A stretch of 46,124 bases of DNA from a virus (Duplodnaviria; Heunggongvirae; Uroviricota; Caudoviricetes). The translations under genes were made by a program, and so were the position numbers. The notes beneath the pieces are model-generated. The model was given only the letters and a program-made list of their open reading frames with translations. It was not told the origin of the DNA and did no database searches. The stretch lies in the IMG/VR virus record IMGVR_UViG_2547132255_000002. One strand, 5' to 3'. Positions 9,370 through 44,122 of the stretch are shown one piece after another. Position 1 is the first letter of the stretch; each line of letters starts with the position of its first letter.

Positions 9370-10029
9370 TTAACTAAATGTCTCTTCAGGCCACTGGCTG
9401 GCGATAACTTTCCCTACTACGGAACAGCTATCATTGCATGGAATCATTGGATATTGCGGGTTTAGTGGCTGTAGGAACACCTGACCGCTATCCCTGATCA
9501 GTTTCTTGAAGGTAAACTCGTCACCACCAAGTCTGGCTATGCAGAAATCACCTGGCTCAACAGCCTGCTCGGGGTCAACGAGAATTAACATCCCGTCAGG
9601 AAAGCTTGGCTTCGATCCTGTTGGCGCGGTCATGGAATTACCTTCAACTTCAAGCCAAAACGCACAATCACTGGCTTTTTTGGTTGTGCTGACCCATCTC
9701 TCCGCATCACCTTTGGTAAAGGTTCTAAGCTCAGGCGAGAACATCCCTGCCTGAACATGAGAAAAAACAGGGTACTCATATTGTTTTTTAACGGGGGCAG
9801 ATGAGTATTCGCCAACAGGTGAAAATGTACCGTCGTGGTTGAATGAGACGTTATCAATACCAAGGTATTTAAACACCACACCAATCTCGTCAAGAGATGG
9901 ATGACGAGATCCGCGCAACCAGTGACCAATTCCACCCTGCGTCATACCAAGCTCTTCAGCTAACTTCTCTTGAGTTATGCCGAGCTCTTTCATTCTGGAT
10001 CTAGCCAGTTCATACCATTTCATTTTCAT
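9370..10029 (-). CDS. cI: CI repressor, chimeric: foreign HTH N-terminal domain plus lambda-type S24 C-terminal domain
   Basis: From [39 protein letters not shown] to the end matches lambda cI; N-terminal ~95 aa ([33 protein letters not shown]...) does not. Confidence 0.9.
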
Positions 10030-10084
10030 ACCCTTATTATTACGCTCTGTACTAAAACCATCCATGCACAAGATGTATTTTTAT

Positions 10085-11064: not shown

Positions 11065-12011
11065 ATGAGCAATACAGCAAAAATCTACGATTTCAGCGCC
11101 GCACACGAGCGCAGGAGCAACAGGATGGAGAACCAGAAAACTGGTTACATTCCGTTGTACCGGAGCATTCTGAAACAGTCATGGGCGAAAGATGTTTATC
11201 TTCGCACCCTGTGGGAAAACCTTCTCCTGAATGCCGCCAGAAAGCCATACAAAGCGAATTTCAAAGGTCATGAATGGCATCTGCAACCCGGTCAACTGGT
11301 TGTGACAGCAGCTGATTTAGGTCTTCAGTTATGCGACAGGCATGGCAAGCCGGCAAGCCGTGATCAGGTTGAGCGGATGCTTCAGGTTTTTGTGAAAGAG
11401 GGGATGATCTCCATTGATGGAGAGAAGCAAAAAGGTCGTGTGATCACCATCACAAATTACCATGAATATGCTCAAAAAATGGACGATTCACCCGCACATG
11501 AAGCCGCACAAACAACCGCACATGATGCCGCACATGATGAAGCCAGTAATGGCGCGGCATTCAGCGTACATGCCGCACATGAAAGCGCACATGAAGCCGC
11601 ACAAACAACCGCACATCATGAACAAGAAGGTATTAACAAGAATATAAATAATACCCCCTACCCCCCAATGGGGGAGGCGATGGGCAGGTTAAACCTGAAC
11701 GTCGCAAGGCAGAACGCATCGACTACGAATCCTTCCTGAACGCCTACAACACCGAAGTCGGTGACAGACTTCCACACGCTGTTGCGGTCAACGAGAAACG
11801 CAAACGCCGCCTGAAGAAAATCATCCCGCAACTGAAAACGCCAAACGTGGACGGTTTCAGAGCGTATGTCAGGGCGTTTGTGCATCAGGCCAAGCCGTTT
11901 TACTTCGGAGACAACGACACGGGCTGGACGGCAGATTTTGATTACCTGCTGAGGGAAGATTCGTTAACGGGAGTTCGGGAAGGGAAGTTTGCAGACAGGG
12001 GGATTGCATGA
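11065..12011 (+). pseudogene. Replication initiator (lambda O / P22 gp18-like), frame interrupted by an apparent 1-nt deletion near 11654-11674
   Basis: Frame-1 ORF 11065-11739 carries the N-terminal domain and the iterons; a start-less frame-3 ORF 11652-12011 carries a C-terminal domain ending in ATGA overlap with the helicase start. Confidence 0.6.
11491..11620. repeat. Origin iterons (about six copies of CCGCACATGA) inside the initiator gene, followed by an AT-rich tract
   Basis: Direct repeats at about 11492, 11516, 11528, 11571, 11586, 11609; AT-rich 11621-11653; lambda-ori-like architecture. Confidence 0.75.
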
Positions 12012-13898: not shown

Positions 13899-14071
13899 GG
13901 CGACAGCGACGAAGTATCACCGACATCATCTGCGAAAACTGCAAATACCTTCCAACGAAACGCTCCAGAAATAAACGCAAGCCAATCCCAAAAGAATCTG
14001 ACGTAAAAACCTTCAACTACACGGCTCACCTGTGGGATATCCGGTGGCTAAGACATCGTGCGAGGAAATGA
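13896..14071 (+). CDS. Small nin-region protein (NinD-like?)
   Basis: 58-aa [30 protein letters not shown]...; start overlaps ninB stop and stop overlaps methylase start. Confidence 0.5.
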
Positions 14072-15018
14072 CGATGACTGCGTATTACAACGAAATAGAT
14101 CCGTATGCAGCGCAATGGCTGCGTAACTTAATTGACGCTGGAGAAATTGCCCCCGGTTATGTAGATGAAAGGAGTATTGAAGATGTCACTCCAGGTGATT
14201 TGCGAGGATTTACCCAGCACCACTTTTTTGCAGGAATCGGAGTTTGGAGCTATGCACTTAGAAAAGCAGGATGGCCAGACAACAAGAGTATCTGGACAGG
14301 AAGTTGCCCATGCCAACCTTTCAGCTCGGCAGGCAAAGGAAAAGGGGTTGATGACGAGCGGCACTTATGGCCGGCATTCTTCTGGCTTATTGAAAAATGC
14401 AATCCTGGCATCGTTATTGGCGAACAGGTTGCAAGCGCAGACGGCCTCGCTTGGCTCGACCTTGTACAAACTGACTTGGAAGGTGCGAACTACACCTCTG
14501 CAGGTACCGATATTTGCGCTGCGGGCTTCGGTTCTCCGCACATTAGGCAGCGATTGTATTGGGTGGCCTACTCCAACGACAAATATCAACTTTCAGCCAG
14601 AGACGCGCAGGGGAATTCAGAACCTATCTGGATGCGTGAGACTAGCGGGATGGCAAACTCCTTTAGCGAACGATGCAACAGGTTCAACGCATTGCTACAG
14701 CGGAAAAGACAAGAGCGGAACCCCAAGAATCTGCTTGAAACTTCCCGGGACGGTGAAGCTATGTACCCATTACCGGTTAACGGCTTCTGGAGAGATGCAG
14801 ACTGGCTTTACTGTAGAGATGAAAAATATCGTCCAGTTAGACCCGGCTCATTCCCGATGGTTAATGGCATTGCCAAAAGCTTGGGACGAGGCAAGTCCAC
14901 ACTGGGAAGAATGGCAAAGCGCAATCAAGATCAGCGAATTATTGGATATGGAAACGCAATCAATGCAGAAGTAGCAACGGCATTCGTGAAAGTTTGTATG
15001 GAGGTTGTTAATGCTTAG
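14068..15018 (+). CDS. DNA (cytosine-5)-methyltransferase, orphan
   Basis: Motif [10 protein letters not shown], catalytic PCQ in [16 protein letters not shown], motif VI-like [13 protein letters not shown]; no adjacent restriction endonuclease. Confidence 0.85.
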
Positions 15019-15187: not shown

Positions 15188-15449
15188 TTTCTCTGAGCTT
15201 ATTTCCTTCAAAAAAGACAGAGAAGAAATGCAGACTGAATCTGTCTATTACGTTCAACACCGGAATAAACGCTCGGTGCTTGATCAGGAGCTGGTTATTA
15301 CCGGAGACCTGGCATTCAGAACATATAAGGCCAGAATGGAAATGAAGGATTTCCCTAAATGTGGTTCTGAAAGAGAAGCCGCGTTAAAGCTGGCAGAGTG
15401 GATGCAGAGAATGGCTGCTGCAATTGAGAATTACTGGAGCGAACCATAA
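15180..15449 (+). CDS. Hypothetical nin-region protein
   Basis: 89-aa ORF, start overlaps preceding stop; stop overlaps ninG start. Confidence 0.5.
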
Positions 15450-16060
15450 TGGCTAAACCAGCGCGAAGACGATGTAAAAACGATGAATGTCGGGAATGGT
15501 TTCACCCTGCATTCGCTAATCAGTGGTGGTGCTCTCCAGAGTGTGGAACAAAGATAGCACTCGAACGACGAAGCAAACAGCGCAAAAAAGCGGAAAAAGC
15601 AGCAGAGAAGAAACGACGACGAGAGGAGCAGAAACAGAAAGATAAACTGAAGATTCGAAAACTCGCCTTAAAGCCCCGCAGTTACTGGATTAAACAAGCC
15701 CAACAAGCCGTAAACGCCTTCATCAGAGAAAGAGACCGCGACTTACCATGTATCTCGTGCGGAACGCTCACGTCTGCTCAGTGGGATGCCGGACATTACC
15801 GGACAACTGCTGCGGCACCTCAACTCCGATTTGATGAACGCAATATTCACAAGCAATGCGTGGTGTGCAACCAGCACAAAAGCGGAAATCTCGTTCCGTA
15901 TCGCGTCGAACTGATTAGCCGCATCGGGCAGGAAGCAGTAGACGAAATCGAATCAAACCATAACCGCCATCGCTGGACTGTCGAAGAGTGCAAGGCGATC
16001 AAGGAAGAGTACCAACAGAAACTTAAAAAACTGCGAAATAGCAGAAGTGAGGCTGCATGA
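15449..16060 (+). CDS. ninG: NinG (Rap-like recombination protein)
   Basis: 203 aa, N-terminal Cys cluster ([24 protein letters not shown]) and basic linker as in lambda NinG. Confidence 0.85.
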
Positions 16061-16911
16061 CGTTCTCAGTAAAAACCATTCCAGACATGCTCGTTGAAGC
16101 ATATGGAAACCAGACAGAAGTAGCACGCAGACTGAAATGTAGTCGCGTTACGGTCAGAAAATACGTTGATGATAAAGACGGGAAAATGCACGCCATCGTC
16201 AACGACGTTCTCATGGTTCATCGCGGATGGAGTGAAAGAGATGGCTATTACGAAAAAATTGATGGCAGCAAATACCGAAATATTTGGGTAGTTGGCGATC
16301 TGCACGGATGCTACACGAACCTGATGAAAAAACTGGAGACGATAGGATTCGACACCAAAAAAGACCTGCTTATCTCGGTTGGCGATTTGGTTGATCGTGG
16401 TGCAGAGAACGTTGAATGCCTGGAATTAATCACATTCCCCTGGTTCAGAGCTGTACGTGGAAACCATGAGCACATGATGATTGATGGCTTATCAGAGCGT
16501 GGAAACGTCAATCACTGGCTGCTTAATGGCGGTGGCTGGTTCTTTAATCTCGATTACGACAAAGAAATTCTGGCTAAAGCTCTTGCCCATAAAGCAGATG
16601 AACTTCCGTTAATCATCGAGCTGGTGAGCAAAGATAAAAAATATGTCATTTGCCACGCCGATTATCCTTGTAACGAATACGAGTTTGGAAAGCCAGTTGA
16701 TCATCAGCAGGTAATCTGGAACCGCGAACGACTCAGCAACTCACAAGACGGGATCGTGAAAGAAATCAAAGGCGCGGACACGTTCATCTTTGGTCATACG
16801 CCAGCAGTGAAACCACTCAAATTTGCCAACCAGATGTATATCGATACCGGCGCAGTGTTCTGCGGAAACCTCACATTGATTCAGGTACAGGGAGAAGGCG
16901 CGTGGGCATAA
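16057..16911 (+). CDS. ninI: NinH-NinI in-frame fusion ORF (NinI = Ser/Thr protein phosphatase)
   Basis: First ~63 aa match lambda NinH; the remainder ([23 protein letters not shown]...GNHE...) matches the lambda phosphatase; the separate ninI start frame terminates after 17 codons. Confidence 0.8.
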
Positions 16912-17420
16912 GAGAACTAAACCTCACCAAAGAACAGCATGAGTGGCTGAATGGCTGGCTTGAACTGTGGGGCGCATGGGTTTATTCAGGTCGTCTGGAA
17001 AAGCGCATGAGCAGCGTAATAGCGAAGTTCATGGAGAGCGTAGAGCCGGGAAGAGTTATGACAAGGCCAATGTGTAATGATGATGATGGAATGTTGATTT
17101 CTCAGGTCGTCGATTCCGTCATGTACATTGACAAGAAAGCCTTTGGCATCCTCCTCAGCTACTACGCTCATGGTTCATCTAAGCGAGCAATTGCATCCTA
17201 CTATCACGCGACTGCAAAGCCACGCAAGATGTGTGGACGTGGTGGCGAGGGATGGAGAAAACCTTCACTGGCAACCTGTAGAAACGAAATTGACGACATC
17301 CTGAAAGCGTCGTTATTTGTTTTGTACCAGCCAATGCAAAATGCTTTCAAAATGCGTAAACGTGTTGAGAAAGTTAAGCATGTTGCTGTTAAAAGCCTTG
17401 ACATGCAATTATCCATTTAG
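16902..17420 (+). CDS. Q: Late antiterminator Q (QuuD / phage 82-type, not lambda Q)
   Basis: 172 aa from GTG with RBS GGAGAAGG; [11 protein letters not shown] and [11 protein letters not shown] resemble the QuuD family; position before pR' and the lysis genes. Confidence 0.7.
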
Positions 17421-17428
17421 CCATAATT
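17399..17428 (+). promoter_or_regulatory. Late promoter pR' (-35 TTGACA, -10 CATAAT)
   Basis: Consensus -35 with 18-bp spacer overlapping the end of Q. Confidence 0.6.
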
Positions 17429-17440
17429 AGAAGGTAAGCT

Positions 17441-17480
17441 GCCGTTAGTGACTCTTAAGTTGCAACGGTGGCTTTTTTTG
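17441..17480 (+). terminator. tR'-like intrinsic terminator
   Basis: Hairpin (GCCGTT...AACGGTGGC) followed by TTTTTTTGTTTG; sequence then rejoins the lambda late leader (GCACAACAGGTAAGAGCATTGA...). Confidence 0.6.
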
Positions 17481-17919
17481 TTTGCACAACAGGTAAGAGC
17501 ATTGAACCCTCAGACCTCGCGGAATTGGTGAAAGGTGCCGCGCAGTGCTCTTATCGTTGTGGTGAATGCACAGGCTGATGTGTAAGGGCAAGAATCTTTC
17601 GCTGGATTCGGTGTGGCCACGTAGCCCGCTGTAGGCAGTTGCAGCAAACCGGAGATCAGCACCGGTCGCCACAATCCAAACTGAGCCGTAGCCACTGGCT
17701 ATCCTGAACTCATCAGTGATAGTTATGCTGCGGCCTTCTACATATGACCTTCGTGAAAGCGGGTGGCAAGAGGCTGCGCTAACAACCTCATGCCGTTTTG
17801 CCCGTGCATATCGGTCACGAACAAATCTGATTACTAAACACAGTAGCCTGGATTTGTTCTATCAGTAATCGACCTTATTCCTAATTAAATAGAGCAAATC
17901 CCCTTATTGGGGGTAAGAC

Positions 17920-18243
17920 ATGAAGATGCCAGAAAAACATGACCTGTTAGCCGCCATTCTCGCGGCAAAGGAACAAGGCATCGGGGCAATCCTTGCGTTT
18001 GCAATGGCGTACCTTCGCGGCAGATATAATGGCGGTGCGTTTACAAAAACAGTAATCGACGCAACGATGTGCGCCATTATCGCCTGGTTCATTCGTGACC
18101 TTCTCGACTTCGCCGGACTAAGTAGCAATCTCGCTTATATAACGAGCGTGTTCATCGGCTACATCGGCACTGACTCGATTGGTTCGCTTATCAAACGCTT
18201 CGCTGCTAAAAAAGCCGGAGTAGAAGATGGTGGAAATCAATAA
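17920..18243 (+). CDS. S: Holin S (lambda type, dual-start MKM)
   Basis: 107 aa [43 protein letters not shown]... matches lambda S. Confidence 0.95.
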
Positions 18244-40737: not shown

Positions 40738-43683
40738 ATGACAGACATTACAGCCAATGTTGTGGTAAGCATGCCTTCGCAACTCTTCACTATGGCGCGT
40801 TCTTTTAAAGCCGTAGCCAATGGCAAAATTTATATCGGTAAAATTGACACTGACCCGGTAAATCCTGAAAACCAGATTCAGGTTTATGTGGAGAACGAAG
40901 ACGGTTCTCACATTCCTGTTTCGCAACCAATAATGATTAACGCTGCTGGATATCCGGTATATAACGGACAGATTGCCAAATTCGTAACCGTGCAAGGCCA
41001 TTCTATGGCTGTTTATGATGCGTATGGTACACAGCAGTTCTATTTTCCTAATGTGCTGAAGTATGATCCTGATCAGTTACGGCAGCAATTAGAAGACCCA
41101 GATGGAGCGAATAAATACCCAAAACTTCAGATAGCAAGATGGAGAGACAGTTATGATGTAAGAGGTTGGGGGGCTATTGGTGATGGTGTTCATGATGATA
41201 CATCAGCTCTATCAGAATTACTTTCTGTTGCAACAGGTGGTGAAAAGATAGATGGGCGAGGGCTTACTTTTAAAGTATCAACTCTTCCAGATGTCAGTCG
41301 ATTTAAAAATGCTCGTTTTTTATTTGAGAGAATACCGGGTCAGCCTCTTTTTTATGCTTCTGAAGATTTTATCCAGGGAGAGTTATTTAAAATTACAGAT
41401 ACACCGTGGTACAACGCCTGGACGCAGGATAAAACGTTTGTATATGACAATGTCATCTATGCGCCTTTTATGGCTGGAGACCGCCATGGTGTAAATAACC
41501 TCCATGTTGCATGGGTTCGCTCAGGAGATGACGGGAAGACCTGGACAACGCCGGAATGGCTTACAGATTTACATGAAAACTATCCCACAGTTAACTATCA
41601 CTGCATGAGTATGGGGGTTGTCAGAAATCGCCTTTTTGCTGTAATTGAGACGCGGACCGTGAGCGGAAATAAACTGCAGGTTGCAGAGTTGTGGGATCGC
41701 CCAATGAGTCGCAGCCTTCGCGTTTATGGTGGTATAACGAAAGCAGCAAATCAGCAAGTCGCTTATATTCGCATTACTGATCACGGATTATTTGCTGGTG
41801 ATTTTGTCAACTTCTCAAACTCTGGTGTTACAGGTGTTACCGGGAATATGACGGTGACTACTGTTATTGATAAAAATACTTTTACAGTTACGACGCAAAA
41901 TACCCAGGATGTGGATCAGAATAACGAGGGTAGATACTGGAGTTTTGGTACATCATTTCACTCGTCACCATGGAGAAAAACCAGTCTTGGAACTATTCCT
42001 TCTTTTGTTGACGGAAGCACTCCTGTTACTGAGATTCATAGTTTTGCGACGATTAGCGATAACAGTTTTGCTGTTGGCTACCATAATGGTGATATTGATC
42101 CACGTGAGCTTGGGATACTCTATTTCTCTGATGCTTTCGGTTCTCCTGGTAGCTTTGTTCGCAGACGCATACCTGCAGAATATGAGGCGAATGCATCTGA
42201 GCCATGTGTAAAATATTATGATGGCATTCTGTATCTGACGACCAGGGGGACATTAAGTACTCAACCCGGTAGTTCATTGCACAGAAGCTCTGATTTAGGT
42301 ACATCATGGAATTCTCTTCGCTTCCCAAATAATGTTCATCACTCAAACCTTCCTTTTGCCAAAGTTGGCGATGAGCTGATTATTTTTGGCAGTGAGCGCG
42401 CATTTGGTGAGTGGGAAGGAGGAGAACCTGATAACCGTTATGCAGGAAATTATCCAAGAACATTTATGACCAGAGTTAACGTCAATGAGTGGAGTCTGGA
42501 TAATGTAGAGTGGGTTAATGTTACTGATCAGATTTATCAGGGCGGAATAGTTAACTCTGCGGTTGGTGTTGGTTCAGTTTGTATCAAAGACAACTGGCTG
42601 TACTACATTTTCGGTGGGGAAGACTTTCTAAACCCATGGAGCATAGGGGATAACAACAGAAAATATCCTTATGTTCACGATGGTCACCCGGCTGATTTGT
42701 ATTGTTTCAGGGTGAAAATTAAACAGGAAGAATTTGTTTCAAGGGATTTTGTCTACGGAGCCACTCCTAACAGAACGCTTCCTACTTTTATGTCGACGTC
42801 AGGCGTGAGGACGGTTCCTGTACCCGTTGATTTCACAGATGATGTTGCCGTCCAGTCACTGACTGTCCATGCAGGTACATCAGGACAAGTTCGCGCGGAA
42901 GTCAAACTTGAGGGTAATTACGCCATTATTGCGAAGAAAGTACCGTCTGATGATGTTACCGCTCAGAGATTAATCGTTAGCGGAGGTGAAACAACGTCTT
43001 CAGCAGATGGTGCAATGATAACGTTGCATGGTTCCGGAAGCAGTACTCCACGTCGCGCGGTATATAACGCACTCGAACATCTTTTTGAGAACGGAGATGT
43101 TAAACCTTATCTTGATAATGTAAATGCTCTTGGTGGTCCGGGAAACAGGTTCTCGACAGTTTATCTTGGCTCCAATCCTGTGGTTACCAGTGACGGAACA
43201 TTAAAGACAGAGCCGGTCTCTCCTGACGAAGCATTGCTGGATGCCTGGGGTGACGTCAGGTATATCGCTTATAAATGGCTGAACGCTGTCGCTATAAAGG
43301 GGGAAGAAGGGGCGAGGATACATCATGGTGTAATCGCGCAGCAACTTCGTGATGTTCTTATTTCTCACGGACTCATGGAAGAAGAAAGCACAACATGCCG
43401 CTATGCCTTTCTTTGCTATGACGATTATCCCGCAGTATATGATGACGTCATTACTGGCCAAAGGGAAATGCCGCTGACTGATAATGACGGGAGCATCATT
43501 GTTGATGAGGATGATAATCCAGTGATGGTAATGGAAGACATCATTGAGCGCGTTGAAATAACGCCAGCAGGATCTAGATGGGGGGTCAGACCTGATCTCT
43601 TATTCTATATCGAGGCAGCATGGCAGCGCAGAGAAATAGAAAGAATAAAAGCTAGGTTAGACTTAATAGAAGGGAAGCACTAA
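40738..43683 (+). CDS. Tailspike: P22 gp9-like head-binding domain, endosialidase-like receptor domain, C-terminal intramolecular chaperone
   Basis: N-terminal ~115 aa ([43 protein letters not shown]...) match P22 gp9; two Asp-boxes SGDDGKTW and SSDLGTSW; ~160-aa C-terminal tail after a TSD site. Confidence 0.8.
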
Positions 43684-43829
43684 ATGTTTCGTTGGCGTCA
43701 AAAATATGAACTGCTCACATAAAGAAGTAAGCACATTGGCAAAAAACATTGACGTCAACGAAATTAAATATAAAACATCATGCAGACATATTACCAATAT
43801 TAATATAAGGTAATAAAAATATAATTTAC

Positions 43830-43855
43830 AAAAAAGCCCGTTGGAAGCGACGGGC
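43830..43855 (-). terminator. Putative intrinsic terminator for leftward transcription (tI-like)
   Basis: GCCCGTCGCTTCCAACGGGC hairpin followed on the minus strand by TTTTTTGT. Confidence 0.5.
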
Positions 43856-44122
43856 ATTAACCGCGGTAATGGATAAATTATTAATGTTTTTAGATTGTGA
43901 ACGATATCATATTGTGCGGAAGTAGTGAAGTAACCATGTAAAATGATTGTTTCATAGCCTATGAGACACACAAGGCTTTGTGCTCTTCGATAGTTGTTAA
44001 GGCGGATCACTCCACCTTTTCATCAAGCCAGTCAGCCCACCACTGCATCATTTCTCTGCGCTTATCGAGATACTGAGCATGGTTGTAAATTCAGCAAACG
44101 ACGTAATGTGTTTGACAAAAAA

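Follow-up and report, generated by a model that had tools for sequence, protein, structure and literature searches.

In the window, the whole 46,124-nucleotide stretch of Caudoviricetes DNA analysed here, the nin genes ninH and ninI are joined in one continuous open reading frame (ORF) on the plus strand (Table 1). This is exactly the single 284-aa frame with an ATG start that the initial annotation had described, and its ninI part lies between ninH and Q, the position that ninI also has in lambda. The ninH start is preceded by a GAGG Shine-Dalgarno (SD) sequence and overlaps the stop codon of ninG in the tetranucleotide ATGA, whereas at the other end the fused frame overlaps the start of the Q-like antiterminator gene by 10 nt. 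Pfam assigns residues 1–60 of the product to Phage_NinH (PF06322, E = 3.4e-42), with a score of 142.6 bits (cut-off 29.8) and with model positions 1–60 of 60 covered, and residues 75–249 to Metallophos (PF00149, E = 9.9e-17, 62.4 bits). The motifs GDLHG, GDLVDRG and GNHE are all found in the translation. The domains and motifs bear out the earlier description of a NinH-like N-terminus followed by a full Ser/Thr phosphatase.

Elsewhere in the nin region, between ninE and ninF, the window carries a gene for a cytosine-C5 DNA methyltransferase (14032..15018, plus strand; PF00145), which is 314 aa long as called on a public contig; lambda has no such gene at the ninE–ninF position. In the close relative Sf6, tRNA-Asn and tRNA-Thr genes lie between the phage-21-type Q gene and the holin gene. 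The window is without them at 17420..17920, and according to ARAGORN the whole of it, this interval included, is free of tRNA genes.

Table 1 Coordinates of the fused ninH–ninI frame, its parts and the adjoining genes in the window.
Feature	Position	Strand	Description	Basis
Fused ninH–ninI ORF	16057..16911	+	284 aa; NinH(1–62)-Gly63-NinI(3–223)	ORF list, Pfam, KKA62460.1
NinH-derived part	16057..16242	+	codons 1–62	comparison with lambda NinH
Deletion site	16243..16244	+	between G16243 and G16244	alignment with lambda, Sf6, Stx2_5044; 107 homologs
SD sequence of the old ninI start	16229..16232	+	GGAG, 8 nt 5' of the ATG at 16241; intact	
Leftover ninI start codon, out of frame	16241..16291	+	16 codons and stop; within ORF 16166..16291	
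NinI (lambda phosphatase) part	16246..16911	+	Tyr3 to end	1G5B alignment, residue mapping
Alternative product (NCBI PGAP)	16213..16911	+	232 aa, from internal Met53	P0005 / WP_113772403.1
ninG	15449..16060	+	203 aa	ORF list; PF05766 on identical contig
Q-like antiterminator gene	16902..17420	+	172 aa, GTG start	ORF list; PF06530; Sf6 annotation

The ninH/ninI junction

The lambda reference has ninH at 43040..43246 and ninI at 43224..43889, with 23 nt common to both; the two are read in different frames, and that of ninI is +1 with respect to ninH (184 mod 3 = 1). The data give no reason to invoke programmed frameshifting as the origin of a fusion in the wild type. The initial annotation had stated that lambda ninH ends within the start of ninI in another frame, and this holds; the in-frame arrangement of the window is not one that lambda shares and that would make it ordinary. 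Alignment of the junction with lambda, Sf6 and Stx2-phage 5044 shows the window to be one base short of all three (GAGATG-GCTATTAC against GAGATGCGCTATTAC). What the window lacks is the base directly 3' of the ninI ATG, a C (lambda position 43227), where lambda has GAGATGCGCTATTAC and the window GAGATGGCTATTAC; the wild-type sequence at the site itself is ATGCGCTAT and that of the deletion allele ATGGCTAT. Within 140 nt around the deletion there is otherwise no difference between the window and lambda, and the context, ATG[C]GCT, contains no homopolymer. The junction Gly codon, GGC, consists of the last base of the ninI ATG and the GC that now follows it. For this stretch the window had been read correctly as GAT GGC TAT TAC, whereas the lambda sequence given beside it (GAT GCG TTA TTA CGA) was slightly off, the actual one being GAT GCG CTA TTA CGA.

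The loss of this base affects both genes. The frameshift has removed the ninH stop codon that would lie within ninI, so that a stand-alone NinH of ~60–70 aa is no longer encoded. Translation of NinI from its own SD sequence and ATG, which would give a protein beginning MRYY, is not possible either, as the frame of the ATG at 16241 ends after 16 codons; the 17 codons given in the initial annotation correspond to these 16 and the stop.

Because the ninI frame of lambda has no stop in the 105 nt 5' of its ATG, a −1 shift anywhere in a zone of ~125 nt at the ninH/ninI overlap is predicted to give a fusion instead of a truncation. With a permissive zone of this size, sporadic ninH–ninI fusion ORFs would be expected in databases with no selection needed. 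The overlap also holds an A6 run (A_AAA_AAT), located directly before the stop codon at the wild-type ninH end, CGA AAA AAT TGA; this site corresponds to 16252..16265 in the window and to 43236..43246 in lambda.

Distribution of the deletion

In all 107 full-length homologs, drawn from IMG/VR loci and reference phages, the additional base is present, NinH is 68 aa long and NinI begins MRYY. With the query of 855 b, each of the 40 best phage records covers 856 b, and the 60 best matches in complete E. coli genomes are likewise all one base longer than the query. With an 80-nt junction query, no match reaches 99% identity in any of the 420 complete E. coli genomes or 43 phage records containing the junction; the best match among these genomes and phages is 98.8%, that is, a single gap. 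Searches for the exact deletion pattern returned no matches in IMG/VR, in the GTDB species representatives or in the JGI metagenomes, and the wild-type junction pattern returned at least 120 in IMG/VR.

The allele was found in a small set of public assemblies. The contig AEZY02000006.1 (383 kb) encodes an identical 284-aa protein, deposited as KKA62460.1 under the name 'phage protein NinH [Escherichia coli 9.1649]', and the identical 284-aa ORF is present in the Logan assemblies of two SRA runs (SRR387489 and SRR25691301). In a TPA assembly (GCA_031618215.1) the junction DNA is identical, and PGAP calls only the 232-aa phosphatase from Met53. These carriers, which are identical over up to 21 kb, may represent the same strain or clone sequenced repeatedly. 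Beyond the deletion, the 855 bp contain one lineage-private nucleotide, which is synonymous. On these comparisons the deletion allele is very rare, of single origin and limited to one lineage. The event is also recent and without accompanying decay, given that the only other private change is synonymous, and decay through private non-synonymous changes was rejected on the same ground.

Product and origin of the fused frame

Residues 1–62 of the fusion are identical to lambda NinH (68 aa) except for G31V. The last six residues of lambda NinH (ALLRKN) and its own stop codon are missing, and whereas lambda NinH is a stand-alone protein, the NinH part of the fusion carries a 221-residue phosphatase at its C-terminus. 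Lambda NinH is a Fis-like DNA-binding and bending homodimer that dimerises via its C-terminal region, and a C-terminal truncation of it is insoluble (PMC7166090). The residues of its helix-turn-helix (HTH) that contact DNA (N18, R30, T32, R34 and K35) and those involved in dimerisation (H45, H55 and R56; PMC7166090) are all kept in the window protein. A C-terminal load of 25 kDa beside the dimerisation region could nevertheless disturb dimerisation or DNA binding. The substituted codon 31 (16147..16149) encodes a Val inside the HTH, adjoining the DNA-contact residues R30 and T32; at this position Gly is found in 100 of the 107 homologs and in lambda, Val in 4 and Cys in 3.

Residues 64–282 of the fusion align to residues 3–221 of lambda NinI (lambda protein phosphatase, ORF221; PDB 1G5B) over 219 residues with an E value of 4.9e-147. 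Only 8 substitutions separate the two, none of them lineage-private, and the metal-binding and catalytic residues D20, H22, D49, R53, N75, H76, H139, R162 and H186 of lambda NinI are all kept (D81, H83, D110, R114, N136, H137, H200, R223 and H247 in fusion numbering). The difference lies at the N-terminus, where Met1-Arg2 of lambda NinI are replaced by a 63-residue extension (NinH 1–62 and Gly) and the phosphatase has no in-frame start of its own. An AlphaFold2 model of the 284-aa protein (mean pLDDT 75, pTM 0.70) has a confident HTH at residues 8–37, pLDDT below 50 at residues 40–58 and a confident phosphatase core from residue ~61, which suggests a chimera of two modules on a flexible tether.

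Our preferred reading, to which we give a probability of roughly 85%, is that the fused frame results from a recent one-nucleotide deletion private to an E. coli lineage, an ordinary mutation in dispensable genes and no evolved architecture. The prophage concerned is P22-like/lambdoid, its hosts are strain 9.1649 and isolates nearly identical to it, and the C lost is the one next to the ninI start codon, within the 23 nt shared by ninH and ninI. Ribosomes starting at the ninH ATG (16057) would then read through into the ninI frame, and their translation is probably coupled to ninG, given that the ninG stop overlaps the ninH start. Their product would be a 284-aa chimera of NinH minus its last six residues, one Gly and the lambda Ser/Thr phosphatase from Tyr3. 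Ribosomes at the old ninI ATG would make only a 16-residue peptide, so that the phosphatase domain could be made only as a fusion or, improbably, from Met53. The Met53 ATG has no SD sequence 5' of it, and the PGAP start is for that reason unlikely to give a real product. Since all catalytic residues are intact, an active, NinH-tethered phosphatase is the probable product, its two modules connected via the flexible NinH tail, and through NinH it may be dimeric and DNA-bound. Translation still ends at the usual stop of ninI, with which the Q start at 16902 overlaps, so that coupling to Q and polarity on it should be unaffected. As lambda does not require its nin genes, ninH and ninI among them (PMC10695390), the deletion is most likely near-neutral.

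A functional knock-out or early pseudogenisation, in which the chimera misfolds or is degraded and NinI, perhaps with NinH, is lost in a decaying prophage, seems to us very unlikely. Independent initiation of ninI is indeed abolished, the 284-aa ORF is left uncalled by PGAP in the TPA assembly, the C-terminal dimerisation region of NinH, a protein that is insoluble when truncated at this end (PMC7166090), abuts the junction, and a loss of the nin genes, which are not essential, would be tolerated (PMC10695390). However, the ORF contains no further disabling changes, its one private substitution being synonymous, and in the AlphaFold2 model both folds are predicted confidently with only the tether between them at low confidence. 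On the public contigs, nothing else of the prophage seems to be missing. Furthermore, N-terminally tagged lambda phosphatase is routinely active, and such tags are well tolerated.

Whether NinH and the phosphatase are joined elsewhere bears on the possibility that the fusion was selected. The NinH part was searched against 1.84 billion (1.84e9) cluster representatives, and long matches were scanned with Pfam. The search returned 67 matches, nearly all of them stand-alone proteins of 52–111 aa; a few longer ones carry a Rha domain (P0133), HTH repeats or uncharacterised tails, and no protein with both NinH and a metallophosphatase is among the 67. When the whole fusion was used as the query, only three other clusters spanned both domains (P0001–P0003, 1 contig each), all of them ORFs from Logan assemblies, 272–284 aa long, with PF06322 and PF00149. 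As in the window, the read-through in these three goes back to a −1 frameshift in ninH, 5' of ninI. Unlike in the window, it is one A of the GGGAAAATG run (A4) at NinH codon 43/44 that is lost, the C-terminal third of NinH is destroyed and an 18-residue out-of-frame linker takes its place. Their ninI ATG is moreover in frame and normal NinI can still be made, whereas in the window it is out of frame. P0001–P0003 were rejected as instances of the same fusion on account of the different frameshift in the A4 run and the out-of-frame linker. A conserved NinH+Metallophos architecture was also rejected, as it does not recur in the 107 homologs, the 420 E. coli genomes, the 43 phages or the databases. 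Hence, of the alternatives offered in the initial annotation, a natural fusion or a single-base loss, what stands is a genuine allele that has lost one base relative to every relative examined, and what falls is the notion of a conserved architecture.

An adaptive fusion, with selection having favoured a DNA-tethered dimeric phosphatase as a bona fide new architecture, is in our view extremely unlikely. Such an origin would fit with both domains being intact and free of further damage, with the position of the deletion inside the narrow ~125-nt zone in which a −1 shift yields a fusion and no truncation, and with the fusion of NinH domains to other modules elsewhere, such as the Rha domain in P0133. 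Against this, the allele has a single origin, occurs on near-identical contigs only and is absent from every other collection searched; its domain combination is absent among the 1.84 billion representatives; and the only other 'fusions', P0001–P0003, stem from a different frameshift that leaves an 18-aa out-of-frame linker and a destroyed NinH C-terminus. A random −1 frameshift in the 125-nt permissive zone is also expected now and then without selection.

The lineage-private deletion is of little import for biology at large, as it is a frameshift in textbook lambda nin genes, which are not needed for plaques to form. An active chimera would still be a ready-made natural DNA-tethered lambda phosphatase and could hint, in a small way, at what NinH and NinI do in vivo. 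We regard it as a long shot that the chimera is both made on prophage induction and active, and so constitutes a natural phosphatase tethered to DNA via a Fis-like dimer; if it does, lambda phosphatase activity could concentrate on nucleoid- or phage-DNA-bound substrates, and two nin genes would be linked, with the hint that their products share a pathway. It is just as doubtful that a DNA-tethered phosphatase of this kind serves a function open to selection, or that the fusion points to NinH and NinI being functionally connected. In practical terms, the locus is annotated inconsistently, as a 284-aa 'phage protein NinH' in one record and by PGAP as a 232-aa phosphatase starting at an internal Met without an SD sequence.

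Other members of the gene chain also form joint frames. In P0012 (427 aa, 12 member sequences, 4 contigs), NinI is fused at its C-terminus to a lambda-Q-type antiterminator (PF03589) by ninI–Q read-through, and in P0010 (321 aa) the NinI phosphatase runs at its C-terminus into unrelated domains. In general, the overlapping stop/start junctions of the nin–Q gene chain seem prone to fusion ORFs.

Base-level accuracy of the window

Over 6.7–20.9 kb the window is identical to the carrier contigs save two homopolymer losses that only the window has. At position 10078 it has T5 where AEZY02000006.1 has T6, and at position 11654 it has C5 against C6 in three public contigs that otherwise match it (AEZY02, SRR387489 and SRR25691301). 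The C5 at 11654 frameshifts the replication initiator gene O (11125..~12012, plus strand) and cuts it after about residue 176 in the window only; on the same three contigs gene O is intact and encodes 295 aa. As a homopolymer-length change that the other contigs do not reproduce, the C5 is likely an assembly error, and it is probably the other single-base loss to which the initial annotation alluded. The window assembly contains homopolymer indel errors or private indels, and its base-level accuracy is imperfect.

The ninH/ninI deletion is a genuine allele and no assembly error, since it lies at a non-homopolymer site and is common to four other assemblies. A base-calling error that dropped the C from a genome with the ordinary ninH/ninI overlap is thus scarcely credible: the losses at 10078 and 11654, absent from otherwise identical public contigs, do point to indel errors or private indels in the assembly behind the window, but both lie in homopolymers, which the junction site does not, and the deletion is present in every other assembly found (AEZY02 as revised at NCBI, two Logan assemblies and one TPA assembly), all of which share it without the homopolymer losses of the window.

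Position 10078 itself is intergenic and falls in the operator/promoter region between the gene of a cI-like repressor (9370..10071, minus strand) and a divergent cro-like gene.
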